Below are positions 4,308 to 20,000 of a stretch of 20,000 bases of DNA, one piece after another. The stretch lies in IMG/VR virus record IMGVR_UViG_3300031555_004022. One strand, given 5' to 3'. The first letter of the stretch is position 1. Each line of letters starts with the position of its first letter. The notes under the pieces are model-generated. The model searched no databases, was not told where the DNA came from, and saw only the letters and a list, made by a program, of their open reading frames with translations. Both the position numbers and the translations under genes were made by a program. The DNA is from an uncultured virus (IMG/VR IMGVR_UViG_3300031555_004022). Lineage: Duplodnaviria; Heunggongvirae; Uroviricota; Caudoviricetes.

Positions 4308-4423
4308 TTTCTTCTCCTTCCTGGGGCTTCCTGTTTTTCCGGATTTACGGCGGCCCTTCTCTGGGCCTCTTGGCGGCCTTCTGGCGGGTCTTTTTTGACC
4401 GCGACCGCCAGCCCTCGGAAACG

Positions 4424-4475: not shown

Positions 4476-4564
4476 GCACATTTCCTGTCTGATATTCTAT
4501 CGCCTGGGGCCGAAAAACGCCACCCCAGGTTTTCCCCACGTTTTTACGCTCGGTTTTCAGCCCT

Positions 4565-5008: not shown

Positions 5009-5043
5009 CGTTTACTTCCTCCTTTCGGCCCGGTAGGTCGTTT

Positions 5044-5775: not shown

Positions 5776-6001
5776 TTCGCACTCCTTCCAGCGTCGCGGT
5801 GTAGGTCGTTGTGACGACCTGGATCGCCGTGCGCTGCATTTCTCCGCAGCTTATGCGGTCTTCGACCGGTATGCCCGCGGCTTCCTCCGCGGTGTCGGTT
5901 TTGTTGCAGTATGGCCGGGCCGGGCAGCCGGGGCACAAGCCCGCGGCGCCCAGAGCGTCAAACAGCCAGTCCTGTTCCTCGCGGGTGGCAATGATTACCA
6001 C
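5759..6001 (-). CDS. Hypothetical Cys-containing phage protein
   Basis: 80 aa, GTG start, tightly packed between its neighbours; CPGC...C...C. Confidence 0.6.
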   Translation of the reverse strand: MVIIATREEQDWLFDALGAAGLCPGCPARPYCNKTDTAEEAAGIPVEDRISCGEMQRTAIQVVTTTYTATLEGVRNAERE

Positions 6002-6002
6002 G

Positions 6003-6507
6003 TCACGCGCTCCTTTCCATCAGGTGCAGGGCCATCCGGCGCCAGCTTTCGGCCTGCTCCTTCGCTTCGGCCAGCTGTTCCTCCAGCTGGTCGGTCTCTG
6101 CTGCGCGGCGGACGTCCCGCCACGGCTTGGGGTCGTAGGTGTTCCGGGGTGCTTCTTCCTCCAGGCCCAGGGCGCGCCGGATCGCGTCGTCGATCTGGGC
6201 CATTTCCTCGTCGGTCACGTGGCCGCAGCACTTATCCAGGCGGCGGGTGTCGACGGTCTTGATCTGATCGCACAGGGCGATCGAAGGCTTCGGGGCGCTG
6301 CCGATCTCGATGTGCAGCCCACCAGGGTCAGGGCGGTCTCGTTTGGTGGTCAGATACACCACCATGCAGGTGTTACCCCCCCCCCGCGGAAAAATCGCTG
6401 ACAATGACGCCAGGGCGTCCGGGCTGCTGTTCGTGGCCCCTGCTGATCTCCATGTCCCGCTCCACGTAGTAAATATCGCCGCGGGTGATTCTCCGGTTTC
6501 TGTACAT
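6003..6507 (-). pseudogene. MazF/PemK-like protein, frameshifted at a G10 tract (6376-6385)
   Basis: RGDIYYV...GHEQQPGRPGVIVS in one frame ends at TAA 6373; VVYLTT...ALCDQIKTVDTRRL...EEMAQIDDAIRRALGL continues in another frame. G9 or G12 would join them (167 aa with G9). Confidence 0.85.
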
Positions 6508-6512
6508 TGTGG

Positions 6513-6707
6513 TCACCATTTCCTTCCGTAGCCGTAGTAGTTCCGGCGCTGCGCGTCGGTCATGTTTCTGACGTTCTTCTTCTCGATCCATTCCAGGATG
6601 CTATCCGCCACCAGCATCAGGATCAAGCCAGGCGTCGCAAGCATTACGCCCAGGGCGCCCAGCAGATAGCCCAGGCTGGCGGTGATCCGGGTGATCAGTT
6701 TCTTCAT
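6513..6707 (-). CDS. Small hypothetical membrane protein
   Basis: 64 aa with a hydrophobic segment; ATGA overlap with the upstream gene. Confidence 0.65.
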   Translation of the reverse strand: MKKLITRITASLGYLLGALGVMLATPGLILMLVADSILEWIEKKNVRNMTDAQRRNYYGYGRKW

Positions 6708-6880
6708 GTGTTCTCCAGTTCCTCGAACTCCGCGTCCAGCGGGTCGATTTCTTCCAGGATGTACACGGCGCCATGCAGCAGTCCGGCAGCGATCACAGCG
6801 ATCAGCATGACGGGCAGTTCGATCACCAGGATCAGAACGTCGCGCACTTTGTCCCAGGTCTTTTTCAGCAGTTCCTTCAT
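6704..6880 (-). CDS. Small hypothetical membrane protein
   Basis: MKELLKKTWDKVRDVLILVIELPVMLIAVIAAGLL..., ATG at 6880 overlapping the ParB stop. Confidence 0.65.
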   Translation of the reverse strand: MKELLKKTWDKVRDVLILVIELPVMLIAVIAAGLLHGAVYILEEIDPLDAEFEELENT

Positions 6881-8181
6881 TCGTCCATTCCCTCCAGGCT
6901 CCAGGCCGCCACCAGGGCGTCCAGCATTTCCAGACAGGCGCGGGCCTGCGCTTCTTCCAGTCCGGCGTTCACGACGCACCAGCGGATCATGCCGATCCGG
7001 TCGGTCTCGGTTTCCACGGACTTCTCGATCTCTGCGGCGATCTCCGCCTTGTAGGTGGTCACCGGCCCCGCCACGGGTTCGGCTGGCTTGACGTTCTTGT
7101 TCCGGTACATATCGCAGGCGGTGGTCTTGTCCGTCCGATCCATGCAGGTGTCCCAGTTTGCACAGCTGAAGCACAGGGACGTCAGCGTCTTCGGCTCCGC
7201 CTGGGTTACCGGTGCAGCCTTCGCTGCTGCCTTTGCTTCTTCGGCCAGCACCTGGCGATCGACCACTTCGCACCGGAAGTCGCAGGTCGTCCGCTTCAGG
7301 CAGCCCTTGCAGCAGCCAGCGCACCCGACCAGCTCACCCTTCCGCATGAAGTTCGCCTTGATCACGCCGTAGTGTTCACAGGGGCCGTTGGCGACCTGGC
7401 AGTCCCTGGACGCCCAGGGGTTGCCGTCGTCCTTCGGCTTCGGTGTTGCCTGCCTGGCTTCGCTGGCGTCCTTGTGGGTGATCTCCGTGCCGGTGTCCTG
7501 GGCGCGCTCGAAGGCGGCACGCTGCGCGTCTTCATCCATGCCCGCCAGGGCGTAGGCTGCGGAGAATTTCAGGCCGCCGGTGTCCAGCAGTTGCTTCAGC
7601 TCTGGGATCAGGTGGCCGGTGATCCGCTCGATCTGGGCGATCTTCGTGGTGGACTTGTTCAGGATCGCGGCGATCACGTCGCGGAGACGTCCGCTTGTCA
7701 GGTCGTACCCGGCCAGCTTCTGGCCCTTTGCCCGCATGGCTTCCAGGGTGGCCTTCAGGGTGGTGTACTCCTGGAGCTGGTCGCCGATGGACTTGACGCG
7801 CTGGCTGTTTGCGGCGATCAGGTCAATGGTTTCTTCCTCCGGCGTCTTCTTCGCCCGGACGTTGCAGGTCGCCACGCTGAACTCGGTGTGTCCCCGGCTG
7901 ACCAGCAGCTTCAGGGCCTCCCATCTGCGCTCACCGCTGACGATCCGGTACTGGCCCGCCGGGGTGGGGTCGTAGATCACGACCAGATTGTCCAGCAGGC
8001 CGGACATCAGAATATGGCCCGCCAGTTCCTCGATCTCGACGATCTCGTAGAAGTTGCCCTCGTTCCGGTACAGCTGATCGATCGGCAGGTCTTTCGTCCG
8101 GAACTTTCCGGAAGGGCCGGAAGGCTGCGCGCCTTTGCTGGCCGCGTTCAGGGTGTCCAGAATGTTGTGTCCTGTTGCCAT
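6877..8181 (-). CDS. parB: ParB/Spo0J-family protein with Cys-rich C-terminal extension
   Basis: YRNEGNFY, GLLDNLVV, YRIVSGERRWEAL (GxRR motif), ANSQR, then a HTH-like region; directly after parA. Confidence 0.85.
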   Translation of the reverse strand: MATGHNILDTLNAASKGAQPSGPSGKFRTKDLPIDQLYRNEGNFYEIVEIEELAGHILMSGLLDNLVVIYDPTPAGQYRIVSGERRWEALKLLVSRGHTEFSVATCNVRAKKTPEEETIDLIAANSQRVKSIGDQLQEYTTLKATLEAMRAKGQKLAGYDLTSGRLRDVIAAILNKSTTKIAQIERITGHLIPELKQLLDTGGLKFSAAYALAGMDEDAQRAAFERAQDTGTEITHKDASEARQATPKPKDDGNPWASRDCQVANGPCEHYGVIKANFMRKGELVGCAGCCKGCLKRTTCDFRCEVVDRQVLAEEAKAAAKAAPVTQAEPKTLTSLCFSCANWDTCMDRTDKTTACDMYRNKNVKPAEPVAGPVTTYKAEIAAEIEKSVETETDRIGMIRWCVVNAGLEEAQARACLEMLDALVAAWSLEGMDE

Positions 8182-8972
8182 TACTTCAGCACCTCCATGA
8201 TCTCACGCGCCAGGGCGGCATATTCCCGCGATACCTTGCAGCGGGGGCTGTACGACGTGACCGGCTCCTGGTTGATGCTGGCCCGCTCCACGATCACCGA
8301 CCGGCTGACCGTGGCGTCAAACGCCTGGCAGCGGTCGAAGGATTTCAGCCACTTCTCGAACTGATCGGAGGCGTCGTTGCGGCCCTTCATGGTGAAGAAC
8401 GACCGCAGCACCAGGGCGTCGTTCAGGCCGTGCAGCTGCTCGATCGTGTCGGCCATGTGGCCCAGGGCGTCAGCCTCGAAGCCGCCCAATTTCACCGGCA
8501 CGACCACCAGATCAGCCGCCACCAGGGCGTTCAGGACGGTCATGTCAAGCAGCAGGCCGCAGTCGACGATCACGTAGTCATACAGTTCCTGCACCTCCGG
8601 TGTGCCCAGGGCGGTCTGTAGCCGTCGCACCTGGTCGTTCTCGGTGTCGGTGGCGATCTCCGTGTTCGCGTCCATCAGGTAGCCGTTCGCCGGGATCACG
8701 TCGACCCGGTAGAAGCCGGTCTTCTTGTCTCCGAACACTCTGGACTGCTTCACAACGTCCGCCACGGTGACCTCGCCATGAACAGCAGACAGCAGGGCGG
8801 CCAGGCCCTTGTCCTCCGGGTCTGCCACGCCGTACAGGGTGGACAGGTTGCCCTGTTGGTCGGCGTCGATCATCAGGACACGGTGATGCGCGCCCAGGAT
8901 GCAGCCCAGGGCCGCGGCGGTCGTGGTCTTACCGGCGCCGCCTTTTTCAATCATTACAGCGATTATTTTCAT
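8181..8972 (-). CDS. parA: ParA/Soj-family ATPase
   Basis: KGGAGKTTT deviant Walker A, IDADQQGNLS, YDYVIVDCG, ALVAADLVVVP. Confidence 0.93.
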   Translation of the reverse strand: MKIIAVMIEKGGAGKTTTAAALGCILGAHHRVLMIDADQQGNLSTLYGVADPEDKGLAALLSAVHGEVTVADVVKQSRVFGDKKTGFYRVDVIPANGYLMDANTEIATDTENDQVRRLQTALGTPEVQELYDYVIVDCGLLLDMTVLNALVAADLVVVPVKLGGFEADALGHMADTIEQLHGLNDALVLRSFFTMKGRNDASDQFEKWLKSFDRCQAFDATVSRSVIVERASINQEPVTSYSPRCKVSREYAALAREIMEVLK

Positions 8973-9019
8973 ATTTCAGGCACTCCTTCACGTTTTTTGG
9001 TCTATTTCTTGTGATTTTT

Positions 9020-9460
9020 TCACTTTCTCCAGCCATCCAGGGACGGGAAGCCCCAGCGCACCTTCAGCAGGTCGGCGTCTTCCGCCATTTTCTCGCACGG
9101 CTTCAGGTTCATGTACTCGGTCAGCAGGTGGATCGCTGCGTTCGCGCTCCATACGACCGCCACGAAATACCCGGCGGCCTGGAGCTGCCGCAGCCAGTCC
9201 TTCTGGTCTTCGCTGGGCAGGTTCTTCCCGTACTTCATTTCGATCCGCAGGCCATGATATACGCCCGCCGGATAGTCCAGGATCAGATCGGGGACGCCAG
9301 GCTTCAGTCCCAGCGACTTCAGAATACCGGCGGTTGCCTTCGTTCTCTTGCCTTCGTTGGGGACGTGGTACAGGTTCTTCAGGCCGGGGTATTTGCCCTG
9401 GGCGTAGCTGGCCCACTCGATCACGGCTTGCTGTTCACTCGTTTCGCTTGCTCCTTGCAC
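9020..9460 (-). CDS. VRR-NUC domain nuclease (resolvase-like)
   Basis: LYHVPNEGKR, GLKPGVPDL, LRIEMKYGKN, SEDQKDW motifs; GTG at 9460 after GGAGG. Confidence 0.88.
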   Translation of the reverse strand: MQGASETSEQQAVIEWASYAQGKYPGLKNLYHVPNEGKRTKATAGILKSLGLKPGVPDLILDYPAGVYHGLRIEMKYGKNLPSEDQKDWLRQLQAAGYFVAVVWSANAAIHLLTEYMNLKPCEKMAEDADLLKVRWGFPSLDGWRK

Positions 9461-10518
9461 TTCTTTCTTCCTCCTTTCCTGATCAGGTGAAGGCAATCCA
9501 GGGGCACCTTGTAGGCCCGGCCCTTGCTTCCGGTCTTCCGGATCACAGCCTGGTCTCCTTCGGCGTACTCGATCAGCTCATAGACCGCCTTCTCGTCATA
9601 GCCCAGATCCTCCGCGTCCCGGATGTGTACCAGGTCGCCGGGGGCACAGGCTCGTCGCAACTTGGCGTATATGTAGGGCAGGCCGTTGAACTCGTTGATC
9701 CGGCGCTCGATGCTCTTTAGCCAGCAGCCAGGGGTCACGGCTCTGATCATTTCGGCGGCGTCTTCGTAGTTTTCGGCCATCTTTTTCGCCTTGTTGTGGC
9801 TGAATGTCTGGTGATTTTTCCGTTCTTCGGGCTTTTTCAGGTTCTTGGAAGCGCACCACCGTTTCTTGCCCTTCGGGTCTTTGGTGATGTAGTGGGCCAG
9901 GCCAGACAGGCCGTTCTCGTCATAGTCCAGGCGGCGGGTCTGATTGCGGCGTCCCAGCTTCCACGTGCTTTCCACTTCATCCATCGACAGCTGGCCGTCC
10001 ATGACGATGTGGTGGTGGCACCTGATCTTGTGGTTGTCGTCCTCTGACCATTCCGTGACATAGACGTACTTGGCAGGGGGCAGGCCCAGCTTCTTCCGGC
10101 GGTAGTTGATGCGCTTGATGTACTTCTGCATATTTTCCAAGGCTTCCTCCATGGAGCCGGGCAGGTTCCGGTCGGTATAGACCAGGGTGGCCCAGATGTC
10201 CTGGCTGGTGAAGTTGGTGTTGATCAGGCGCTCACAGTTCTTTCTGGCGTTCTTGTCCTTCAGGTTCCGCTGGGCCTGGGCATTGTAACCAGGACGGCGG
10301 CCTGCTGCCGGGATGTCTTCACGCTTTACGAACTCCGGATAGATTTCCAGCTCGACCTGATCACCGGCGTCGATCCGCTTCGTGGCGTATATAGCGCGCT
10401 TACCTTTGCGGATCAACTCCCGGACGAACAGGTCATCGTCCTGGTCTATGGTTCGATCGAAGGCTGCCTCGTAGTCGTAGGGAATGAACGGGGCGGGCTT
10501 CTTCCTTGGCTGCTTCAT
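9421..10518 (-). CDS. HUH-superfamily rolling-circle-type replication initiator (Rep)
   Basis: Motif I WATLVY, motif II HHHIV (RCHHHIVMD), motif III LAHYITK, in the canonical order; GGAGG RBS. Confidence 0.75.
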   Translation of the reverse strand: MKQPRKKPAPFIPYDYEAAFDRTIDQDDDLFVRELIRKGKRAIYATKRIDAGDQVELEIYPEFVKREDIPAAGRRPGYNAQAQRNLKDKNARKNCERLINTNFTSQDIWATLVYTDRNLPGSMEEALENMQKYIKRINYRRKKLGLPPAKYVYVTEWSEDDNHKIRCHHHIVMDGQLSMDEVESTWKLGRRNQTRRLDYDENGLSGLAHYITKDPKGKKRWCASKNLKKPEERKNHQTFSHNKAKKMAENYEDAAEMIRAVTPGCWLKSIERRINEFNGLPYIYAKLRRACAPGDLVHIRDAEDLGYDEKAVYELIEYAEGDQAVIRKTGSKGRAYKVPLDCLHLIRKGGRKKCKEQAKRVNSKP

Positions 10519-10619
10519 TGTCTGGCCTCCTTGTAGGCATCTGATCTCACGAAGATTTCCGTGACTTCGGGCTATCCATTACAAGGCCGCCATACCGGGT
10601 GTCTTCCCGGTCGTTTTCG

Positions 10620-10648
10620 TTGACAATTACCGCGCCTTCTGGTATAAT
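10620..10648 (+). promoter_or_regulatory. Consensus sigmaA promoter, antisense to the early operon
   Basis: TTGACA (10620-10625), 17-nt spacer, TATAAT (10643-10648). Confidence 0.85.
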
Positions 10649-10654
10649 AGAAGG

Positions 10655-10731
10655 GCAATATTTAGGTATTGCAGCCTTGTCGGCGTGCCGCCTCCACTCT
10701 CAAATGTCGGGCGGCGCGCCGCTCTTTTTTT
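10655..10731 (+). ncRNA. Putative ~77-nt antisense sRNA upstream of rep
   Basis: Lies between the consensus promoter and an intrinsic terminator (12-bp stem 10681-10692/10710-10721, then CTC and T7); no ORF. The 5' end is estimated. Confidence 0.65.
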
Positions 10732-10888
10732 ATGCGCTTTTGTCGTCTTCCTCATTGTTCCGTTCCGCCTCCTTGCCCATCAGGTAGCCCACGAAGTAGG
10801 CCTTGTCGCGGGTGGGCAGTTTGGTGAACTTCTCCGCCACGGTCTGCGCGACCGTGGCGTTTTCGTTTTTCTGGGGTTCCTGGGTCAT
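10730..10888 (-). CDS. Small 52-aa protein (absent from the ORF track), similar to 15710-15832
   Basis: GGAGGTG RBS; MTQEPQKNENATVAQTVAEKFTKLPTRDKAYFVGYLMGKEAERNNEEDDKSA. Confidence 0.75.
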   Translation of the reverse strand: MTQEPQKNENATVAQTVAEKFTKLPTRDKAYFVGYLMGKEAERNNEEDDKSA

Positions 10889-10892
10889 GTTC

Positions 10893-11111
10893 TCACCTCC
10901 GCAGGCTGAAGCCCTTCAGGACGCCGTTCTCAAACACGGGCGCGACGTACTTCTTGCTGGGTTCCACGATCACGGCGCCGGGCACGTCAGGGTGGAAGCG
11001 CAGGCCGATTTCGCTGCCGTCGACCAGCTCAATCCAGATCGTGCCGGTGTCGTCGACGCCGGTGATCTTCTTGACGCCGATCACTTCCACATTGTTCACA
11101 GTCTTTTCCAC
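10893..11111 (-). CDS. Hypothetical phage protein
   Basis: 72 aa, AGGAGGTG RBS, GTG start. Confidence 0.7.
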   Translation of the reverse strand: MEKTVNNVEVIGVKKITGVDDTGTIWIELVDGSEIGLRFHPDVPGAVIVEPSKKYVAPVFENGVLKGFSLRR

Positions 11112-11154
11112 AGTTTCACCTCCTGGGGTTGGTTTCCATTTATTTCCACTTTCA

Positions 11155-11484
11155 TCACGACGGCATACTTCCGTCCGGGTGTGCTGCGGTAGTGTGCTGT
11201 TGGCGGCGTTCCCGCAGGGCGTCCGCTGCTGCCTTCCTGTCTTCCTCGGTGGCCTTCTCGTTGATGATCACCAGGCCGCCCTGGGTTCTCGCGATCGCGG
11301 CACCGACGCCTGCGGCGGCGATCGCGGTGAAGATGTTGCTGACAAAGTCCATGATGTACTGATCGTGTTCGTCGTGATCCTTTTCCTGTTCCTTCAGCAT
11401 ACCGATCGCGGCGTCCTCCAGGAAGTTGCACGCCTTCAGGATGTCCTCGTCTTCGATGATCCGGAAGTTCTGGCCGTCAATCAT
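11155..11484 (-). CDS. Hypothetical phage protein
   Basis: 109 aa, GGAGG RBS, ATGA overlap. Confidence 0.7.
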   Translation of the reverse strand: MIDGQNFRIIEDEDILKACNFLEDAAIGMLKEQEKDHDEHDQYIMDFVSNIFTAIAAAGVGAAIARTQGGLVIINEKATEEDRKAAADALRERRQQHTTAAHPDGSMPS

Positions 11485-11900
11485 TCCGCCGCCTCCGTTC
11501 CTCTCATGTCGTGGACGATCCGAAGGGCGCGGCCCTTCTCGTCGATCTTGCGGTGGTCAAAATAGACGACCTTGGCAATGCCCAGCAGGTCGGGCAGCTC
11601 CGAAGGTCTGACCGCGCGCATACCAGAGTATTCGATGTTTCGACGGCTGAACAGCTGGACGCCTTCGATGTAGTTGGCAGCGCACACGGTGCCGTCGGGG
11701 TATTCGTGGATTTCATGGACGACGGTGGGATCATTCCACCATGCCCGGCCATTGCTGACCAGCCACTTGTCCTTGATCTTGCGGAAGGCATAGTAGCCGG
11801 TGGTCACTTCCGGGCCGCCCTGCTCCTGTTTGCACTTTCTGGCCTTCTCGTCCATAGCCTTCAGCCAGGCCGGGCTGAAGGTGATCGCAGTTTCTGCCAT
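11481..11900 (-). CDS. Hypothetical phage protein
   Basis: 139 aa, AAGGAGGT RBS. Confidence 0.75.
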   Translation of the reverse strand: MAETAITFSPAWLKAMDEKARKCKQEQGGPEVTTGYYAFRKIKDKWLVSNGRAWWNDPTVVHEIHEYPDGTVCAANYIEGVQLFSRRNIEYSGMRAVRPSELPDLLGIAKVVYFDHRKIDEKGRALRIVHDMRGTEAAE

Positions 11901-11902
11901 TG

Positions 11903-12118
11903 TTACCTCCTTGTAAAGTGTTCCGGCGTGTTTTTATACACGCAGTTCATATTCTTGTCCATAGCGCCGACGACGTGCATGATCTCACCATTGTCCATGC
12001 GTCGCAGGGCGATCTCATAAATGTACGGGCAAACAATATCCACAGCGCCGACCGTTCTGTCGTTATAAACGACCGGCACCCTGTCCTTGAATGCCTGCTG
12101 CGCTTCTTTCCAGGTCAT
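11903..12118 (-). CDS. Hypothetical phage protein
   Basis: 71 aa, GGAGG RBS, ATGA overlap. Confidence 0.7.
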   Translation of the reverse strand: MTWKEAQQAFKDRVPVVYNDRTVGAVDIVCPYIYEIALRRMDNGEIMHVVGAMDKNMNCVYKNTPEHFTRR

Positions 12119-12327
12119 GCTTTCTGGGCCTCCTTCTTCTCCCGGCGCTTCCGCCGGTTGTATTCAGGACACGCGAACGGCTCCAGGTCGTGGCACTTTT
12201 CGCAGCACGCTTTGCAGGTAGCCTGCCCGAAGCGCTCATAGCCGCAGGGCCTCGCCCGCTCGGTCTGATCCGGAAAGACTTCGCCGCAGATGTAGCACCG
12301 GAAGCCCGCCACGGGTTTCTTTTTCAT
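12115..12327 (-). CDS. Small Cys-rich (probably Zn-binding) protein
   Basis: CYIC, CKACCEKC and further Cys residues; overlaps its neighbours by 4 nt. Confidence 0.65.
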   Translation of the reverse strand: MKKKPVAGFRCYICGEVFPDQTERARPCGYERFGQATCKACCEKCHDLEPFACPEYNRRKRREKKEAQKA

Positions 12328-12638
12328 GCGGTGCCCTTCTTTCTCCTGGGCTTTCCGCCATCCGGACGGCGGGCCATCTTTGCGGCCTCCATGATCGCGC
12401 GCTGGCGCTGCTCCTGGGTCTGATCTTCAGCGAAGCACGGCAGGCCGCCCATGTTGGCAGCCACGACGCGGGCGTAGGTCAGACCGGTGACCAGGACGTC
12501 CTTCAGCAGCATGATCTGCGCGACCTGCTCCGCGTTGGTGGGGTCTTCGGGTCTCATTGCCTTCGCCCAGCCGACCGCAGCGTCCAGGTCTTCGGGTTCG
12601 ACCAGTTTGTAGCCTTTCTTCTGTTTCATTTTCGTCAC
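12324..12638 (-). CDS. Hypothetical phage protein
   Basis: 104 aa, overlapping start/stop packing. Confidence 0.65.
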   Translation of the reverse strand: MTKMKQKKGYKLVEPEDLDAAVGWAKAMRPEDPTNAEQVAQIMLLKDVLVTGLTYARVVAANMGGLPCFAEDQTQEQRQRAIMEAAKMARRPDGGKPRRKKGTA

Positions 12639-13402
12639 GCCACGAAATTGATCAGAACGATCGCCGCCAGGGTAGCCACGAAGGCCAGGGTGATGTTCTT
12701 CTGGCGGGCGCCGTCCTTTTCGCCGACCGTGCCCAGGAACAGCACGAAGGCGATCAGGCCCAGCAGAATGTTCAGAAAAATGATCATCGTGTTTTCTCCT
12801 TTCCTGATTTGTCCCGTTTCGGCCCTCCGTAGGCCATCATCGGTGACGCGGGTCAGCGTCAGACGGGATGGGCCAGGGCCGCCGTGATCGACGCCCTGGC
12901 CGTATAATTCGTAAAGCGTAGGCACCGGCAGCAGCCAGGTCACCAGCACCTTCACGGCGCCGTCGTGCCGGTCTTCTTCCTCCGGCTCGTCGGCGTCTGC
13001 GTATTCTTCCATCATTTCCCGGATTTCTTCCCAGGCTTCAGCCAGGCCGGGCGCGTACTGTTCGTTGATCGTCTGGATCAGGGCGTTCAGCATTTCGGCA
13101 GCTGCGGCTGCTGCCTGGGCTACCAATTCACCGACGCGGCGAAGGGCGTCGTCCAGTTCCGCCACGGTGATCCCGGCGGCGTGGGCCAGCTGCGCGATCT
13201 GGAACTCCAACTCTTTACCGTTCCGGCGACCGGCGCCTATGATCACGGCCCGGCTGCGATCCCGTTCCTGGAGTATCTGTTCCTTGTCCATTGACGCCAG
13301 GCGGCGAAGGGTTTCGACGCCTTCGTCCATGGGGACGATCAGCTCGCCCGGTTCCATTTCCAGCTCCTGGGCGTCCGTTTCAATTATTCCGCCGTGGATC
13401 AT
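12635..13402 (-). CDS. Hypothetical acidic protein reading in frame through hammerhead A into a small membrane ORF (internal start 12787)
   Basis: GGAGGT RBS before ATG 13402; a second RBS AGGAAAGGAG precedes ATG 12787 (50-aa two-TM peptide); no stop codon between them. Confidence 0.6.
   Translation of the reverse strand: MIHGGIIETDAQELEMEPGELIVPMDEGVETLRRLASMDKEQILQERDRSRAVIIGAGRRNGKELEFQIAQLAHAAGITVAELDDALRRVGELVAQAAAAAAEMLNALIQTINEQYAPGLAEAWEEIREMMEEYADADEPEEEDRHDGAVKVLVTWLLPVPTLYELYGQGVDHGGPGPSRLTLTRVTDDGLRRAETGQIRKGENTMIIFLNILLGLIAFVLFLGTVGEKDGARQKNITLAFVATLAAIVLINFVA
12812..12868 (-). ncRNA. Type III hammerhead ribozyme A
   Basis: UCCCGUC^UGACGC-UGACCC-GCGUCA-CCGAUGA-U-GGCCU-ACGGA-GGGCC-GAAA-CGGGA; stems I, II and III all pair. 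Predicted cleavage 12862/12861. Confidence 0.8.
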
Positions 13403-13421
13403 GCGTACCTCCGAAGGTTGT

Positions 13422-13442
13422 GCCGCCCCTGGGCGGGGCGGC
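13422..13442. promoter_or_regulatory. GC-only hairpin just downstream of the DGR-like variable region
   Basis: GCCGCCCC-TGGGC-GGGGCGGC (8-bp stem, 5-nt loop), 6 nt past the stop codon, with no U-tract. Confidence 0.65.
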
Positions 13443-13448
13443 GGATTG

Positions 13449-14102
13449 TTAGATCATGGAGCCGATCAAGAAGCCGAACGCGACGCCAATGGAGTAGGTC
13501 GCGCCGTGGTTGTTGGCGACGCCGTAGCCGTTCACACCGCAGAAGTACGTGGTGGACGAAGACAACGGGGAGCGGGTGGCGTACCACCACGTCTCGCCGT
13601 TGAAGTTCTTGACGCGGTCGGCTTCGGTCTTGAAAATGGGCAGCTGTTCCTCGTCGGGGCCGTCGCACTCGGTGCCCCACTCGCCCCTGCCGAACATTTC
13701 CGTCGCAGAGGGCCGCCACAGCTTGTCCTCGGTGACGACTTCCTCGCCGCCGATCAGCTGAACGATCCGGCGGGGCGTGATCTCCGCCACCAGGTCGTCA
13801 GGCAGCAGGGCCAGGTCTTCGGTGTTCATGGTCTTCCGGTCGTCGGATTCTGCCCAGGACAGCAGCTTGCCGGGCAGGCGGTTGTACATAGGGCGCCGGG
13901 CGTGCAGGTCTTTCGCGATAAACAGGGCGCCGGTGTCGGTGACCTTCGCGGCCACGACCGTCTGGGCGATCCCGTCCTTGCCGATGTAGGTGATTTCGTC
14001 GCGTTCCTCCAGGAACTGGGTCAGGCGGCCCTGCTGGGCCTCGACGGTGATGTCGTGCCAGTTCACCGGCACCTGCTTCCACTTTCTCATAACTGCGGAC
14101 AT
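13449..14102 (-). CDS. DUF6273-like/C-type-lectin-fold protein, probable DGR target
   Basis: 217 aa from ATG 14102 (AGGAGG RBS); DKLWRPSATEMFG, QLPIF, and C-terminal WWYATRSP...FCGVNGYGVANNHGATYSIGVAFGF. Confidence 0.8.
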   Translation of the reverse strand: MSAVMRKWKQVPVNWHDITVEAQQGRLTQFLEERDEITYIGKDGIAQTVVAAKVTDTGALFIAKDLHARRPMYNRLPGKLLSWAESDDRKTMNTEDLALLPDDLVAEITPRRIVQLIGGEEVVTEDKLWRPSATEMFGRGEWGTECDGPDEEQLPIFKTEADRVKNFNGETWWYATRSPLSSSTTYFCGVNGYGVANNHGATYSIGVAFGFLIGSMI

Positions 14103-14130
14103 TGTTCTTTCCTCCTGATTGTTGGTATTG

Positions 14131-14298
14131 TTAGCCCTGGGCCGCTTCCGCGGGCGCGGGCTTGAATAAATGGTCATACTGGCCGTCCCGGTTCTCCCGG
14201 ATCGCGTTGATCAGCTCGTCCAGGCTGATCCCCAGGACGCCGACGACCTGCTGCTGCGGGGTCAGCGCCCGCTGCTTCTCCACGATGAACTCGTTCAT
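14131..14298 (-). CDS. Small 55-aa hypothetical protein (absent from the ORF track)
   Basis: GAGGT RBS; MNEFIVEKQRALTPQQQVVGVLGISLDELINAIRENRDGQYDHLFKPAPAEAAQG. Confidence 0.7.
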   Translation of the reverse strand: MNEFIVEKQRALTPQQQVVGVLGISLDELINAIRENRDGQYDHLFKPAPAEAAQG

Positions 14299-14307
14299 GG
14301 GGTTACC

Positions 14308-15113
14308 TCACTTTATGGCGTATTTTTGGATTTCTGTCTGATCGAACGGCACCGGCTCCGCGACGCCGAACAGGGACAGCTGGGCGTCGTCCAGTCGGAA
14401 CTGTTCGTCAATGTCGCAGAATCGCTCCGTCCGGGTGAATCGGTCGGTTGATTTGTTTGGTAGTGCTTGCAGCTCCAGCAGCCGTTTCCACAGCTCCGGG
14501 TGGTGGTCGTATAGGTGCCGCAGCTCCCGCCACTTTGCATTTGGGCAGAAGAAGCAGCCGTTTCGGGTTGTAAACTCATACGACGGAGAATACAGCCCCG
14601 CCTTCTTGCAGATCGCCACGGCGTCGGCTTCGGTCTTTCCGTACTTTGCCAGCAGGGACACTTTCGTCGTCCCGTCCAGCCGTGCCAGGCGATCAGCTTC
14701 GTCGTCGGCGATCCCGATGTACTGGATTACCTCGTCGTTTTTCCAGGCGGCTGCCTTGTACCGTTCCATGGGGCGGACTTTGCAATCGCGGTTTATGTAG
14801 CAGCGGCCACACAGCGGCCACGCCCATATTTTCCCCGCGTGCCGTCCACCCCCCCCCCGATCTCCTTCTGGAATAGGTCGACGAAGTTCTTCTCGCTCCT
14901 GACGATGTGTACCTTGATCCCGTGCCCCTCCAGCCACGGGATCGCGGTGTCGTAGATAAAGGCCCGATGTTCCGGCACCTCCGCGCTGATCTCCTTGTCG
15001 AACATGGTCTCGCAGTATAGGGCCTCGGTCAGCGGATCGCCATGTTCCACAGCCAGGATTGCCGACGCCATGCTATCTTTTCCGAAGGAACAGGACAGCA
15101 CATAGCGCTTCAT
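14308..15113 (-). pseudogene. PAPS-reductase-like (PP-loop) protein, frameshifted at a G10 tract (14849-14858)
   Basis: SCSFGKDS PP-loop in the 5' frame; CYINRDCK, QYIGIADDE and RNGCFFCP in the 3' frame. G8 or G11 joins them (268 aa with G11). Confidence 0.85.
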
Positions 15114-15119
15114 TGTGTT

Positions 15120-15287
15120 TTAGCCCTCCCTCGCCAGCAGTATGTTCTCGGTGATTTCCACCTTCCGGATATGTTCGGGCGCGAACGTGTTCAGGGCTTT
15201 GTTCCAGGCTTCGGTCAGGTTTTGGGCCTTCACGGTGAAGCCCGTGGTGCCGCCGTTCACAAACGTGACGATCACGATGTATTTCAC
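15120..15287 (-). CDS. Small hypothetical protein
   Basis: GGGAGG RBS, GTG start; MKYIVIVTFVNGGTTGFTV... Confidence 0.65.
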   Translation of the reverse strand: MKYIVIVTFVNGGTTGFTVKAQNLTEAWNKALNTFAPEHIRKVEITENILLAREG

Positions 15288-15301
15288 AGGGCCGCCTCCC
15301 T

Positions 15302-15586
15302 TCACAGCGTCTCGTATTTGCCGGTGGTGGGGTTCTTGTACTGGATTTCGGTGCAGCCCAGGCTGGCGCCGACGGTGTCCAAGGGCGCGAAGCTGTTGGA
15401 GTCAGAACAGACGCCCCAGAAATAGGTGACGCCGTCGTCGTCCTTGCAGCGGAACTTGTGGATCATCCGGGGCAGCATCTTCTCGATCTGCTCCCGGCTG
15501 TACTGGTATTCGCAGCGGACGCGGCGGTCGAATTTCTCGCCGTCAAAGACGGCCTTGTTCTCGTGGGTGATTTTGAAAATAGCCAT
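15302..15586 (-). CDS. Hypothetical phage protein
   Basis: 94 aa, AAGGAGG RBS; first gene downstream of hammerhead B. Confidence 0.75.
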   Translation of the reverse strand: MAIFKITHENKAVFDGEKFDRRVRCEYQYSREQIEKMLPRMIHKFRCKDDDGVTYFWGVCSDSNSFAPLDTVGASLGCTEIQYKNPTTGKYETL

Positions 15587-15591
15587 GTGTG

Positions 15592-15615
15592 CCTCCTTGC
15601 GGGGTTTCCGCTTTC
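15592..15615 (-). repeat. 24-bp leader repeat, copy 1 (identical to 17290-17313)
   Basis: GAAAGCGGAAACCCCGCAAGGAGG, ending in the SD sequence. Confidence 0.9.
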
Positions 15616-15620
15616 ATAGT

Positions 15621-15675
15621 CCCGTTTCGGCCCTCCATAGGCCATCATCGGCGGTGCGGATCGGCACCGGACGGG
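15621..15675 (-). ncRNA. Type III hammerhead ribozyme B
   Basis: CCCGUC^CGGUGC-CGAUCC-GCACCG-CCGAUGA-U-GGCCU-AUGGA-GGGCC-GAAA-CGGG; intergenic. Predicted cleavage 15670/15669. Confidence 0.82.
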
Positions 15676-15676
15676 T

Positions 15677-15701
15677 GGCACCGGGGATCCTCCCCGGTGC
15701 C
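15677..15701. repeat. 11-bp perfect inverted repeat directly 5' of hammerhead B
   Basis: GGCACCGGGGA-TCC-TCCCCGGTGCC, with no U-tract. Confidence 0.8.
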
Positions 15702-15709
15702 CTCGGTGT

Positions 15710-15832
15710 TTACTTTGCGGTCTGCTTCTCGTCGTGCTTGCCGGTGACGTAGCCCAGGGCGAACTCCTTCGCCTCGTCGTCCAGCTGGGCGAACTTCTTC
15801 AGGGCTTCCTCGATCAGGTTCTTCTTCTCCAT
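15710..15832 (-). CDS. Small 40-aa protein, similar to 10730-10888
   Basis: GGAGGTG RBS; MEKKNLIEEALKKFAQLDDEAKEFALGYVTGKHDEKQTAK. Confidence 0.75.
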   Translation of the reverse strand: MEKKNLIEEALKKFAQLDDEAKEFALGYVTGKHDEKQTAK

Positions 15833-15834
15833 GG

Positions 15835-16032
15835 TTACACCTCCTTCTTTTTGGGCGGTTCTCCGGTGGTCAGCCACGCCAGCCAGCACTCGCGGCAGGT
15901 GATATGGCTGCAATCCGCTTTTACTCCGGAAGGGAAGGGCGGGTGGCCCTTCCAGAAAATATCGGCCAGCTGTTCCACGGACGCGTCCGGGGTTTTCAGC
16001 ATTTCGGCCAGGACTTTGGTGCCTGCTTTCAC
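15835..16032 (-). CDS. Hypothetical phage protein
   Basis: 65 aa, C...CREC...WL ending, GTGA overlap. Confidence 0.65.
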   Translation of the reverse strand: MKAGTKVLAEMLKTPDASVEQLADIFWKGHPPFPSGVKADCSHITCRECWLAWLTTGEPPKKKEV

Positions 16033-16421
16033 TTCGCTGCCTCCTTCTTCTGGCCGATGTACTTACCGGCCCGGAAGCAGATCAGCGTCTGACAGAACAG
16101 CAGCACCGGCACAGCGAAGGCCAGCTCCACCAGGCCCAGCCACCAGCCCAGGGCAACAACGCCCGCAGCGGCCAGCAGCTTCAGCTCTTGCTTCACCAGG
16201 CGGCGCCATGCCCGGCGGCGGCGCTGTTCTGCCGCCTGGGCCTGTCTCCATGCTGCGATCTGGCGATCCCGTTCGGCCTGCTCCGCGGCGGCCTTCTTCT
16301 TCCGGTTCTGCTCCATGTGGTGGGACAGCTCTGCCAGCTCGATCGTTTCCTCGTCGACGAAGACGGCCCGGCTGCCGTTGTTCGTCTTCCTGGCAATGTA
16401 GATTCCATTCAATGCTTGCAT
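16029..16421 (-). CDS. Hypothetical membrane protein
   Basis: 130 aa, charged helical segment then two hydrophobic segments. Confidence 0.7.
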   Translation of the reverse strand: MQALNGIYIARKTNNGSRAVFVDEETIELAELSHHMEQNRKKKAAAEQAERDRQIAAWRQAQAAEQRRRRAWRRLVKQELKLLAAAGVVALGWWLGLVELAFAVPVLLFCQTLICFRAGKYIGQKKEAAK

Positions 16422-16423
16422 GA

Positions 16424-16741
16424 TTACGCCCCCTTCTCCAGCTTCGCGATCCGCTCGATCGCCATCAGAATGTCCCGGACGGCTGCGGCGTCGTCGCCCA
16501 GCTCGTCGTACAGTTCCATGTTGACCAGGTCGGCGGCGGTGTCGCAGAACGGGATCAGAAAATTGATCGTTGCACAGGCGGCCAGGCGGCGCTTGCCCTC
16601 GTCGTTCAGGTAGGTGTCGACAGCCCGCAGGCGTTCGGTCTCGCGGTGCAGGGCCTCGACCAGGCCCTCGAAGGTGGTGACGATCTCCCGCTCCTTCTTC
16701 TTTTCCGCCACCAGGGCGGGGTTCGTGGGTCTTGGTGCCAT
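16424..16741 (-). CDS. Hypothetical phage protein
   Basis: 105 aa, AAGGAGG RBS. Confidence 0.7.
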   Translation of the reverse strand: MAPRPTNPALVAEKKKEREIVTTFEGLVEALHRETERLRAVDTYLNDEGKRRLAACATINFLIPFCDTAADLVNMELYDELGDDAAAVRDILMAIERIAKLEKGA

Positions 16742-16744
16742 TGT

Positions 16745-16993
16745 TCAGTCCTCCTTAATTTCGCCGTTCGGGATGAAGTGGGTGACGATCTCGCCCTTGT
16801 CGGGGTGGCGCCGGATCAGTTCGTACCGGACGATCTTCAGGTAGTCCGGGGTGTAGATGCAATGCCATTCGTTGTCCTCGCCGCTCTGCCGGTTGATCAT
16901 TACCTGGGACATCAGTCTGATCAGCTTCGCCTCGCTGATCTCGCGGGTGTGGTCGGGCTTGCCGGGGACTTTGGTGATCTGGGTGTATGTCAT
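16745..16993 (-). CDS. Hypothetical phage protein
   Basis: 82 aa, AAGGAGG RBS. Confidence 0.7.
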   Translation of the reverse strand: MTYTQITKVPGKPDHTREISEAKLIRLMSQVMINRQSGEDNEWHCIYTPDYLKIVRYELIRRHPDKGEIVTHFIPNGEIKED

Positions 16994-17006
16994 GCCGTCC
17001 GCCTCC

Positions 17007-17282
17007 TTATTTCTTGAAAATGACCCGGTCGTTGACGGTGATCTTCTCGCAGATCAGGAAGCCGTCGTCTTCCCAGGTGGCGTCCTTCGTTTCATGGCCC
17101 AGTTCGCGGAGATACTTCAGCGCCTGCTTCATGACGCCATAGTTGACATGATTCCGGGCCAGGTCTTTCTGGGCGGCCTGCTCGTTCATCCGATATGCGG
17201 CCAGGATCGCGTCGCACATCATGGTCTCCACCAGCTTCTCCAGGGTGGCGACGGCTTCGGTGGTTTGCTTCTTCTCGTTCAC
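17007..17282 (-). CDS. Hypothetical protein, first gene of the leftward early operon
   Basis: 91 aa, GTG start after AAGGAGG; no HTH evident. Confidence 0.75.
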   Translation of the reverse strand: MNEKKQTTEAVATLEKLVETMMCDAILAAYRMNEQAAQKDLARNHVNYGVMKQALKYLRELGHETKDATWEDDGFLICEKITVNDRVIFKK

Positions 17283-17289
17283 GTTGTTT

Positions 17290-17313
17290 CCTCCTTGCGG
17301 GGTTTCCGCTTTC
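17290..17313 (-). repeat. 24-bp leader repeat, copy 2
   Basis: Identical to 15592-15615. Confidence 0.9.
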
Positions 17314-17328
17314 TTTTGGGTTTATTTT

Positions 17329-17416
17329 GTTCCCTGTCGGAACTTGTATTCTTATTATAGTTTCGTGACGGAACTTTGTCAAGCATTTCTGAAAAATAAT
17401 TGTTGCATTTCGGAAC
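17329..17416. promoter_or_regulatory. Three putative repressor operators
   Basis: GTTCCCTGTCGGAAC (17329-17343), GTTTCGTGACGGAAC (17360-17374), GTTGCATTTCGGAAC (17402-17416); imperfect palindrome GTTCC-N5-GGAAC, each followed by TT. Confidence 0.8.
17354..17382 (-). promoter_or_regulatory. Early lytic promoter (leftward)
   Basis: TTGACA (17382-17377), 17-nt spacer, TATAAT (17359-17354) on the minus strand. Confidence 0.88.
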
Positions 17417-17431
17417 TTTATGTGTTATCGT
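17403..17431 (+). promoter_or_regulatory. Repressor promoter (rightward)
   Basis: TTGCAT, 17-nt spacer, TATCGT with an extended -10 TG. Confidence 0.6.
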
Positions 17432-17451
17432 ATTCCCAGGAGGTGATCGTC

Positions 17452-17841
17452 ACGAAAGACAGAATTAAACAGTTACGCCAGTCCCTGGGCCTTTCCATGG
17501 AAGACTTCGGTGCAAAGATCGGCGTCGGCAAGTCCGCGATCAGCCGGATCGAAGCCGGTGTCAATGGAACGACCGAACAGACCCTGCGCTCCATGTGCCG
17601 GGAGTTTGGCGCGTCCTACTTATGGCTGACCACCGGCGAAGGCTCCATGTTTGAAAAAGGCGGCGACGACGCCGCGCTGCACATCATGGTCGACCGGGTC
17701 ATGGCGTCCGAAAACGAACGGGTCAAGCAGATTTTCAAGAATCTGGGCGACTTCACGGAGGACGACTGGCGCCAGGTGAACGCAGTCCTGGACAAGCTGC
17801 TGGCCGGTATGCGGCCCTGGGAAGACGAAAAAAAGGACTGA
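17452..17841 (+). CDS. Xre/CI-like HTH repressor
   Basis: KDRIKQLRQSLGLSMEDFGAKIGVGKSAISRIEAG...WLTTGEGSMF; divergent from the early operon. Start uncertain (ACG 17452 or GTG 17443); no peptidase S24 domain. Confidence 0.88.
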   Translation, partial: TKDRIKQLRQSLGLSMEDFGAKIGVGKSAISRIEAGVNGTTEQTLRSMCREFGASYLWLTTGEGSMFEKGGDDAALHIMVDRVMASENERVKQIFKNLGDFTEDDWRQVNAVLDKLLAGMRPWEDEKKD

Positions 17842-17873
17842 CCCCCGAAGGGGCCAGTCCCGTCTCCGCAGCG

Positions 17874-17987
17874 TTAGCGGTTCCTGGTGTACAGGTACAG
17901 GATGTACTTGTAAATCAGCGCCAGGGTCTTCTCGTCCTGGATGTTCTTCAGCATCCGGGCGATCGCTGCCTTGTATGCGTTCTTCAT
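17874..17987 (-). CDS. Small 37-aa protein convergent with the repressor
   Basis: AAGGAGGTG RBS; MKNAYKAAIARMLKNIQDEKTLALIYKYILYLYTRNR. Confidence 0.7.
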   Translation of the reverse strand: MKNAYKAAIARMLKNIQDEKTLALIYKYILYLYTRNR

Positions 17988-18069
17988 TTCTGTCACCTCC
18001 TTCCAGGTGACAGCATACCGCAAAATAAAAAAGCCCGGCAAAAGCGGGCAAGAATATGGAGGTATAACC

Positions 18070-18363
18070 ATGGGATTATTCACTAAAGGGCAGGCCGCAG
18101 TCGCCGCCACCGTCTACGACAAAATGAAGCAGTACGTCGCCCCGAAGGACGGCAGGGTTCACGTGCTTATGGTGAACAGCTTCAGCAAAATGTGCAATCA
18201 GGCATTTGAGTGCGAAGACAAGTACACGACCCAGATGGACTGCATCGTCACCGGCTTGCAGGCCGACGGCTATGAGATCGTCGACATCAAGTTCAATTCC
18301 GTCAAGAATCAGGGCGTCATGGGCGACGCCGAAGGCTTCCACACTCTGATCATGTACAAGTAA
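18070..18363 (+). CDS. Hypothetical protein in the lysogeny module
   Basis: 97 aa, GGAGGT RBS, ATG at 18070. Confidence 0.75.
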   Translation: MGLFTKGQAAVAATVYDKMKQYVAPKDGRVHVLMVNSFSKMCNQAFECEDKYTTQMDCIVTGLQADGYEIVDIKFNSVKNQGVMGDAEGFHTLIMYK

Positions 18364-18522
18364 AGGGCGGCGGACTTACCACCCGCCACCCAGAAAACAA
18401 AAAAGCCGCCCCGGTGTTACCAGCACCAGAGCGGCAGACATACAGTTCCCCCGTATCACCACAATATAGGGGCTTTATGCCCTTTTATTGTAACACACGT
18501 GTCACAAAAAAGGAAGTGCAAA

Positions 18523-20000
18523 ATGCTTGATTTATCAGCTTTCGGCGTCCTGAAGGCTGCGGAGTATATGCGGTACTCGACCGATAACCAGACCGAAAAC
18601 AGCATAGCCTACCAGCAGGCCGGAATCAGGAAATACGCCAGAGAAAACAACATACAGATCGTCGCCAGCTTCCAGGACGAAGCAGCCAGCGGCACCAATA
18701 CCGACCGGAAGGGCTTCCAGGCCCTGGTGGCCGCTGCCGGGCGGAAGGCGTTCGACGCCGTGATTATTTACGACATTTCCCGCGGCTCCCGTGACGTGGG
18801 TGACTGGTTCACCTTCCGGAAGTCCATGATGTACCTGGGCATTAAAGTGATCAGCGCCAGCGGCCAGAAGCTGGGCGACCTGACCAACAGCGCCGACTTT
18901 CTGACGGAACTGATCACCGTGGGCATGGGCCAGGTCGAAGTCCTGGGCACCCGGCAGAAGTCCATCGACGGCGTCGCCGTGAAGGCGAAGCAGGGCGCCT
19001 TCCTGGGCGGCCTCCCTCCCCTGGGCTATGACGTCGTCAACGGCCAGTACGTGATCAATCCGGCAGAGGCCAGGATCGTCCGGGACATCTTCGCCTGGTA
19101 TGCTGCCGGGAAAAGCTACGACTATATCGTCGACCACCTGAAGGGCGCCCTGGGCAAGCGGGGCCGCCCGATCGGGAAGAACAGCCTGAACGGCATACTG
19201 CAAAATGAACGCTATATCGGCGTCTATACCTGGAACAAAAAGAAATACAAGATCATGCGGAAGTGGGCAGGCGGCCAGGCGAATCCCAATGTGGAGCGCA
19301 TAGAGGGCGCGATCCCGCGGATCATTGACGACGACACATGGGAGAAGGTGCAGGCCAGGATGAAGGACAACAAACGGAACGCAAAAAACAAAGCCCGCCA
19401 CCAATACCTGCTGACGGGCCTGATCGAATGTGAAGAATGTGGTGCCCGGTACGTGGGCCACGCCAGTACGAACAAAAAGGGCTTTGTCACCCGGTACTAT
19501 TGCTGCGGCAATAAATACCGGACGCATACCTGCGGGGCGAAGAATATCAACGCCGACGAAATTGAGACGTTCGTCGTCCAGCACCTGAAGGAATACCTGC
19601 GGACGATGGACTTCACGGCCACGGCCCAGTATATCGCCGACCAGATCAACGGCGCCCAGCCCGATCTGAAGGCAGAGAAGGCAGAACTGGCCCAGATAGA
19701 GAAGAAGATCGCGAACGGCGTCCAGGCGGTGCTGTCCGGTCTGGTCGTGCCGGAACTCCAGGCCGAACTGGATCGGCTGCGGGTCAGGAAGTCCGAACTG
19801 GAAGACATTATAGCCCGGCGATCCGCCACCCGGCGCGAACTCGATCCGGCGGCGCTGGTGGCCTTCTTCCGCTCCAGCATTGACCAATGGAACGACGAAA
19901 ACCTCCCCGAAATAATCAGGGCGCACGTGACAAAAATCTACGCCCACGCCGACGGTACTTTTACCGTCAACGTGGGCGTACATACGAATGGTTGCGGAGG
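18523..20000 (+). CDS. Large serine recombinase (integrase), 3' end outside the window
   Basis: YMRYSTDNQ catalytic motif, SGTNTDRKGFQ, GGLPPLGY, YIGVY, LLTGLIECEECG...YYCC zinc ribbon. Start and end of the reading frame are in phase; absent from the ORF track because it has no stop in the window. Confidence 0.93.
   Translation, partial: MLDLSAFGVLKAAEYMRYSTDNQTENSIAYQQAGIRKYARENNIQIVASFQDEAASGTNTDRKGFQALVAAAGRKAFDAVIIYDISRGSRDVGDWFTFRKSMMYLGIKVISASGQKLGDLTNSADFLTELITVGMGQVEVLGTRQKSIDGVAVKAKQGAFLGGLPPLGYDVVNGQYVINPAEARIVRDIFAWYAAGKSYDYIVDHLKGALGKRGRPIGKNSLNGILQNERYIGVYTWNKKKYKIMRKWAGGQANPNVERIEGAIPRIIDDDTWEKVQARMKDNKRNAKNKARHQYLLTGLIECEECGARYVGHASTNKKGFVTRYYCCGNKYRTHTCGAKNINADEIETFVVQHLKEYLRTMDFTATAQYIADQINGAQPDLKAEKAELAQIEKKIANGVQAVLSGLVVPELQAELDRLRVRKSELEDIIARRSATRRELDPAALVAFFRSSIDQWNDENLPEIIRAHVTKIYAHADGTFTVNVGVHTNGCG
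19989..20000 (-). tRNA. Possible 3' end of tRNA-Met/fMet (candidate att junction), partial
   Basis: Minus strand reads CCTCCGCAACCA, resembling the initiator tRNA 3' end (CCGCAACCA); only 12 nt visible. Confidence 0.45.

Follow-up and report, generated by a model that had tools for sequence, protein, structure and literature searches.

The prototype DGR is that of Bordetella phage BPP-1, in which adenine-specific mutagenesis operates from a template repeat (TR) to a C-terminal variable repeat (VR) set in a C-lectin fold. Its elements stand in the order Avd-TR-RT, a GC-rich hairpin follows the VR, and the target, Mtd, is a trimeric protein of the tail-fibre tip encoded beside the cassette.

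Targets lying away from the cassette have also been described. For Faecalibacterium phage FP_Toutatis, the accessible text locates a second VR 17,480 nt away from the TR, within a core gene whose function is unknown (bioRxiv 10.1101/2024.10.15.618418). The 'small DGR target' of phage Lelie (PMC11792537, available sections) is probably also such a gene, judging by its 87% identity to FP_Toutatis. In nd4 and nd12, the second of two targets per TR (target2) is a small protein of 234 and 294 aa, respectively, which according to the sections available consists of DUF6273 only, carries a C-terminal VR and was modelled as C-lectin-like (Baykov et al., 2023, PMC10743442). The second target of Quimbyvirus, a C-lectin protein, is encoded well away from the structural module and is surrounded by DNA-modification and defence-type genes; the excerpted report gives the authors' reading of it as non-structural (Benler et al., 2021, PMC8008677). 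In the accessible parts of this literature, the function of equivalent genes is termed unknown or receptor binding is favoured, and a DGR survey limited to windows would, by its own account in the text available, miss remote targets (PMC8144416). The remote-target arrangement is thus already in print, as far as the available text of these reports goes, for FP_Toutatis, Lelie, CP11 and Quimbyvirus, so that its novelty is lower than the first-pass annotation of the present locus had held.

The window analysed here is a stretch of 20,000 nucleotides from an uncultured virus (IMG/VR record IMGVR_UViG_3300031555_004022). Judging from sequence comparison, the gene at 13449-14102 (-) is with high confidence a second, remote DGR target of its phage, which is a temperate, siphovirus-like phage of gut Clostridia. 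The following features of the window are used below.

9421-10518 (-): replication initiator (phrog_3584, 6.4e-75; Pfam REP_ORF2-G2P)
13422-13442 (-): 8-bp GC-only hairpin with a 5-nt loop, GCCGCCCC/GCCCA/GGGGCGGC, candidate DGR target-recognition hairpin or cruciform
13449-14102 (-): very likely second, remote DGR target gene, encoding a stand-alone DUF6273 protein of 217 aa; stop codon 13449-13451 included
13469-13487 (-): adenine-free, GC-rich 3' end of the VR, GGCGTCGCGTTCGGCTTCT, from a three-way alignment of remote VR, cis VR and TR
13469-13574 (-): VR of 106 nt, by gapless alignment to the TR at 5914-6019 of viral record G050
14111-14116 (-): ribosome-binding site AGGAGG, read from the sequence, 8 nt before the ATG at 14102
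14131-14298 (-): 55-aa ORF occupying the gap upstream of the target gene

The program-made list gives the ORF of the target gene as 13449-14177 (-). Its true start is most likely the ATG at 14102, preferred over the ATG at 14177 because AGGAGG stands 8 nt upstream and most of the 42 homologues are 217 aa long. Since the 55-aa ORF fills the upstream gap, the target gene appears packed into a leftward early operon, without space for a promoter of its own; a promoter and terminator scan of 12500-15200 gave no minus-strand promoter-like site. The protein matches Pfam DUF6273 (PF19789) with 34.5 bits, above the gathering threshold of 23.5, and also matches phrog_21980, and a Foldseek search against the PDB returned no match at E 0.001 or better. 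Its translation closes with WWYATRSPLSSSTTYFCGVNGYGVANNHGATYSIGVAFGFLIGSMI before the stop. The C-terminal stretch resembling an Asn-rich template, quoted in the first-pass annotation, is present as RSPLSSSTTYFCGVNGYGVANNHGATYSIGVAFGF, encoded by 13470-13574. The VR sits at the 3' end of the ORF, inside a C-type-lectin-like domain, and the structure model of the protein looks single-domain, without a separate attachment domain; the VR part of this model is of low confidence.

For the TR search, a pattern was taken from the adenine-free 3' end of the VR and scanned over viral contigs. It matched twice in the viral record G050, at sites 639 nt apart, and in one more record, G051. Between the remote VR and the TR there are 13 mismatches in 106 nt, every one on a TR adenine, and the remaining 93 positions are identical without exception (93/93); the cis VR (G050 6553-6658) likewise differs from the TR at adenines alone (12/12 mismatches). 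The TR has 27 adenines in its 106 nt, all at codon positions 1-2 and none at position 3, belonging to twelve AAY codons and three Thr codons. The chance that 13 of 13 mismatches fall on 27 adenines of 106 positions is 1.3e-9 (hypergeometric). In the VR, the twelve AAY-templated codons are located between 13488 and 13547. Eleven of the twelve codons that the first-pass annotation had listed as former Asn codons fall on true AAY codons of the TR; the twelfth, TCC, is templated by Ser, and AAC at 13530-13532 had been omitted. Its predicted template peptide agrees with the TR translation, RSPLSSSTTNFCNVNNNGNANNNNATNSNGVAFGF, apart from one surplus Asn inside the Ser run. It had also expected a template repeat to exist, and the one found differs from the VR solely at adenines and lies beside an RT.

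The three repeats (remote VR, cis VR and TR) agree throughout the 19 nt of the adenine-free 3' end and diverge directly afterwards. This stretch may represent the GC-rich portion of the homing signal (IMH); from the three-way repeat alignment, no discriminating IMH/IMH* pair was definable. Only 18 nt separate the end of the remote VR from the stop codon. No second copy of the VR occurs within the window or the 24-kb record G001, and no RVT_1 match was obtained in either, in line with the earlier statement that no RT lies nearby. As a separate observation, the last 12 nt of the TR (CGTTCGGCTTCT) occur again as a direct repeat after another 6 nt, where the RT-2 RNA region begins (G050 ~5885-5930 (-)); this repeat may bear on cDNA priming.

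The cassette itself was recovered in record G050, all of it on one strand, in the order primary target, Avd-sized ORF, TR, RT-2 RNA and RT.

G050 (-): tape measure and tail proteins, the tail module ahead of the primary target
G050 6527-12406 (-): tail-fibre-like primary (cis) target of 1,959 aa, carrying the cis VR
G050 6553-6658 (-): cis VR, 12 of 12 mismatches on TR adenines
G050 6074-6445 (-): 123-aa ORF of Avd size and in Avd position (weak match to NCBIfam NF033474, E 0.17, by which Avd is not confirmed)
G050 5914-6019 (-): TR of 106 nt, from pattern scan and gapless alignment
G050 5672-5894 (-): RT-2 RNA (Rfam RF03077), full length, 119.3 bits against a gathering score of 40
G050 4408-5934 (-): RT ORF directly 3' of the TR (RVT_1 2.9e-15; phrog_1423 3e-86)
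G050 (-): holin and endolysin, after the RT

With the tape measure and tail proteins before it and the holin and endolysin behind it, the primary target closes the tail module; its C terminus scores 23.2 bits against Pfam DUF6273, marginally under the cut-off of 23.5. The 123-aa ORF in the Avd position and an equally placed ORF of the related locus L019 both match phrog_30516. The RT ORF is open, and its translation contains LGSQVSQ and YMDD, which we take to be hallmarks of DGRs; the RT-2 RNA family presumably belongs to DGRs as well. Among the tblastn relatives of this RT are the enzymes of Roseburia phage Shimadzu and of the known DGR phages nd12, Roos and FP_Toutatis, and the organism tally contains five records of Bordetella phages; its identity to the RT of nd12 is 36%.

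The link between cassette and window was made through overlapping records and not on one molecule. Positions 18050-22019 of G050 equal positions 1-3970 of G001 at 99.975% (an overlap of 3,970 nt), and G001 5340-24167 equals the window from 1 to 18828 at 100% (18,828 nt). The tiled phage map measures at least 43,388 nt and runs from lysis genes through the DGR cassette, tail, head, packaging, ParAB, replication, small target and early genes to the repressor and serine integrase. On the prophage map, ~30.8 kb separate the TR from the remote VR; in the opposite direction around a circle, the distance is at least 12.3 kb. The claim of a remote, trans-targeted VR in a non-tail gene is thereby borne out, the TR, the RT and the primary target having been found ~30.8 kb off in the same phage. 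A megablast search with the whole window against the phage collection gave no match.

The 8-bp GC-only hairpin reported earlier after the stop of the target gene is indeed present at 13422-13442. It starts 6 nt past the stop and 26 nt past the end of the TR homology, and its folding energy as DNA is -12.1 kcal/mol (z -3.9), a stability reached by 0 of 200 shuffles. It is without a T-run and was not called in the terminator scan. The cis VR is followed, 29 nt past the end of homology, by a hairpin of different sequence (CTCCGCCC-CCTGT-GGGCGGAG), so that both VRs precede a GC-rich hairpin with a stem of 8-9 bp. Of 58 homologue loci, 46 have a perfect stem of at least 8 bp within 70 nt of the stop, whereas such a stem occurs in 12 of 1,200 random windows; the stem sequences vary between lineages.

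Homologues of the target protein were collected by scanning contigs. A scan of viral contigs with the single protein gave no relative, whereas an alignment-based scan gave 60 loci with homologues at 28-48% identity; the homologous protein clusters number 42. The genome-contig scan gave 13 distant relatives only (25-43% identity), in Clostridia-type MAGs, which were taken solely as a hint to the host. In an alignment of 38 sequences, realigned from the 217-aa start, the framework is conserved and about a dozen columns of TTxFCxVxxxGxAxSxxATxAxGVAFGF are scrambled, even among near-identical proteins. Two homologues with 93-94% identity to the window protein illustrate this: P0002 differs from it at 8 of the 12 templated sites and at 7 of 205 others, and P0003 at 9 of 12 and at 5 of 205. 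Templated columns have a mean entropy of 2.78 bits, compared with 1.06 for the other columns, and 443 of 444 residues at templated sites are within the 15 amino acids encodable by NNY, the exception being one Gln. Adenine-biased variation among homologues, the absence of which had been named at the outset as a refuting result, was found at the AAY-templated codons.

The RVT_1 search covered 48 homologue-bearing records, since 12 of the 60 loci were excluded (11 contigs shorter than 8 kb, and L036, which shares its contig with L011). An RT is present in 25 of these records, and in all nine homologue-bearing viral records that are at least 90% complete. The last 106-130 nt of the homologue match a TR near the RT in 20 of the 25 RT-bearing records, and 298 of the 305 mismatches to the TR in these 20 records fall on TR adenines. 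In the other five (G017, G040, G042, G043 and G046) the 3' end of the homologue had no match in the RT locus; for G040 and G043 the query was shorter than 300 nt, the locus ending close to the 3' end of the homologue. The homologue is remote from the cassette in 17 of the 20 TR-matched records, and in G007 and G015, which have terminal repeats, it lies ~14-15 kb from the RT. In the 24-kb record G012 (L019, ~9986-12666), the homologue runs directly into Avd-like, RT and endolysin genes; early-region genes flank it upstream, and the stretch between the remote and cis VRs has seemingly been removed. G012 was not accepted as a case of a cassette-adjacent target and was read as an assembly join or as a deletion or recombination across two near-identical VRs. 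G047 and G049 were likewise rejected as cassette-adjacent small targets, because the match there is the C-terminal domain of a larger protein of the tail module.

Variation restricted to the templated adenine sites of the VR was seen both between genomes and between contigs of other runs. Record G051 equals the window from 1 to 13503 at 99.96% and ends within the VR, of which it covers 35 nt; among its five differences from the window, one falls at 13496, an adenine-templated VR site. The other four are clustered at 1863-1952, within 90 nt of the large terminase gene. For the comparison of runs, Logan contigs containing the target gene were taken from three DNA runs (X5, X7 and X10). Of the 40 contig differences listed, 15 lie within the 106-nt VR (13488-13554), and of the 13 listed between 13488 and 13537, 12 hit positions 1-2 of templated codons. 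The contigs of X5, X7 and X10 have a loose end at 13469 which is the reverse complement of the 3' flank of the TR.

Two further contig patterns were observed. At 13553-13554, the same two substitutions relative to the window occur in every contig of X7, X10 and X15 that covers these positions (4, 3 and 4 contigs, respectively) and in none of X5. Contigs over these positions presumably represent the TR and both VRs, and the pattern looks like a concerted change of TR and VRs between phage lineages, which would be expected if the VRs are regularly overwritten. In X7, a contig of depth 4.3, with 30 nt on its shorter side, connects 13438 to 14127 through 7 intervening letters of other sequence, so skipping the target gene and retaining the distal arm of the hairpin. 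This join may come from a gene-less relative, in which case the target gene would be an insertable cassette, or it could represent another organism at 80% likeness.

An early-region, non-tail location had been claimed for the gene, and it is situated in the replication or early module here and in every relative examined. It has a PAPS-reductase-like gene on one side and unnamed small genes on the other, with the initiator ~3 kb downstream; among 20 neighbouring ORFs searched with Pfam, the replication initiator alone received a name. In six of six related loci the homologue lies among genes for SSB, PAPS-reductase-like protein, methyltransferase, resolvase and initiator, before the terminase, and the replication-initiator family adjoins it in five of the six. 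The homologue of Dulem virus 34 is likewise found among replication genes, and the baseplate genes of that phage point to a contractile tail; the tail module of the phage studied here is of sipho type. The occurrence of this position with both sipho-type and myo-type tails indicates that the small target follows the replication module whatever the tail type. An Mtd-type placement, in the tail module and beside the cassette, was not found, the gene standing among replication genes ~30.8 kb away.

Some other features of the early region deserve mention. The PAPS-reductase-like gene (phrog_424), at 14308-15113 (-), appears to be spread over two ORFs, 14793-15113 and 14308-14937, which overlap in different frames and match consecutive parts of phrog_424; relatives have a single ORF of 284-354 aa. 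The split could be due to a frameshift or a sequencing error, and G001 is identical there. Another gene that looks split occupies 6003-6591 (-), where the overlapping ORFs 6373-6591 and 6003-6404 match the N- and C-terminal parts of phrog_1936, 'MazF-like growth inhibitor'. A 68-nt direct repeat with 79% identity lies within two early-region stretches (12811-12878 and 15619-15686). The first of these belongs to the 3' portion of the gene that directly follows the DGR target, and phrog_20576 matches the corresponding C terminus; the repeat may mark a shared small domain. The phage carries two copies, 86% identical, of an element of ~115 nt. One of them (window 4431-4547 (-)) directly follows a putative transcriptional regulator gene, 4565-5008, and precedes a small ORF, HNH and terminase genes, and the other (G050 3425-3539 (-)) is upstream of the lysis genes. 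The element comprises a GC hairpin and a TAgAAT-like box, together with a 13-bp stem that leads into a U-run; its RNA fold has -48.4 kcal/mol (z -4.9). No Rfam family matched it, and it may act as a late promoter combined with a leader terminator, under antitermination-like control.

By analogy with BPP-1, the RT would reverse-transcribe the TR RNA, making errors specifically at adenines, and the resulting cDNA would replace either VR in trans, its homing being guided by the common adenine-free 3' end and the hairpin. The product would be a single-domain, DUF6273/C-lectin-like putative binder with a randomised surface of 12 residues, and would act as a freestanding binding module expressed along with the early genes. 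It could be argued that an Asn/Tyr/Gly-rich lectin loop followed by a terminator-like hairpin arose by chance or convergence, without any DGR, as DUF6273 also occurs in non-DGR proteins such as IgA peptidase. This retains practically no probability and is already refuted, since the TR agrees at every non-adenine position (P about 1e-9), a match to a TR, with mismatches almost confined to adenines, recurs in 20 related records, and the hairpin has no T-run. It is also improbable that the VR is a relic of past DGR activity which is now either no longer a substrate or served by an inactive RT, so that the variation among relatives would be old. The evidence of variation is at the contig level, and for phage Lelie the available text reports no read-level peak at the VRs (PMC11792537). 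Against a relic speak the identity of 93 of 93 non-mismatch positions to the TR, with synonymous sites free of drift, the intact hairpin, the difference at a VR A-site between genomes 99.96% identical, the differences at 8-9 of 12 templated sites between proteins 93-94% identical, and the open RT ORF with its catalytic motifs. As far as sequence can tell, the remote DGR target is very probably active.

What the diversified protein binds is a matter of weaker preferences. It might be a virion-associated or extracellular adhesin or a receptor-binding accessory, Mtd-like and merely encoded away from the tail genes, whose diversification would let progeny bind new host-surface or gut ligands. The scaffold of its 35-residue VR is the same as in the tail-fibre-like primary target; DUF6273 is found in surface or virion proteins, including the Hoc-like decoration target of FP_Toutatis, and forms the N-terminal domain of a cell-wall-anchored IgA peptidase; and receptor binding was proposed for the equivalent small targets in the available text of two reports (PMC10743442; bioRxiv 10.1101/2024.10.15.618418). 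Such a role is nevertheless doubtful, though a serious candidate, because the gene is in the replication module in the window, in six of six related loci, in Dulem virus 34 and in FP_Toutatis, a position that is constant with a sipho-type or a myo-type tail module, because the model is single-domain and lacks a separate attachment domain, and because the translation, inspected by eye, has no hydrophobic N-terminal stretch. A non-virion role is somewhat favoured, since the gene follows the replication module with sipho- and myo-type tails alike, and an intracellular role is plausible. The most specific proposal, an antibody-like early binder acting inside the cell, which would neutralise variable proteins of host defence or of rival phages and would not be part of the virion, is put forward tentatively and is rather unlikely as it stands. 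If it were true, the function of phage DGRs would extend from receptor tropism to counter-defence. Whatever its ligand, the second target sharpens the question of how a diversified, apparently non-structural binder benefits a temperate gut phage. It also illustrates that the sequence of a remote DGR target is by itself enough for its recognition, the template then being recoverable from fragmented metagenomic records.

Among the described systems, FP_Toutatis offers a close parallel. Its gp24 is likewise a stand-alone DUF6273 protein, of 215 aa. Its early-region gene precedes the replication initiator by ~2.5 kb and has methyltransferases on one side and replication genes on the other. A sequence check made here found that 13 of 13 mismatches between the VR of gp24 and its remote TR fall on adenines, and the cassette (Avd, TR, RT) similarly follows the tail genes and has a cis target of its own. 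The two small proteins themselves show no significant similarity to each other (BLASTP E 0.052; hhalign probability 34%, over the VR scaffold alone), and neither BLASTP nor hhalign detected homology outside it. Other differences concern the distance from the VR end to the stop (~120 nt in FP_Toutatis and 18 nt in this phage); the hairpin, none of which is obvious in the stretch viewed after the gp24 stop; the cis target and tail, Hoc-like and myo-type with a sheath protein in FP_Toutatis and tail-fibre-like and sipho-type here; and the distance between TR and remote VR, ~17.5 kb against ~30.8 kb (at least 12.3 kb round the circle).

The target2 proteins of nd4 and nd12, as described in the available text, resemble the gene of this phage in being small DUF6273 second targets of one TR; a tblastn search with the window protein of a collection including nd12 did not find nd12 at E 1e-5 or better. 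Quimbyvirus, compared by the description in the accessible report, differs in being a Bacteroides phage of another family, with a frameshifted RT and its target on the strand opposite the structural genes. Compared with Mtd of BPP-1, the window protein is remote from its cassette, single-domain and encoded among replication genes. The gene thus represents a new sequence lineage (phrog_21980; 60 viral loci, 42 protein clusters) of already described small DGR targets, and adds a distinct branch to the few that have been described.
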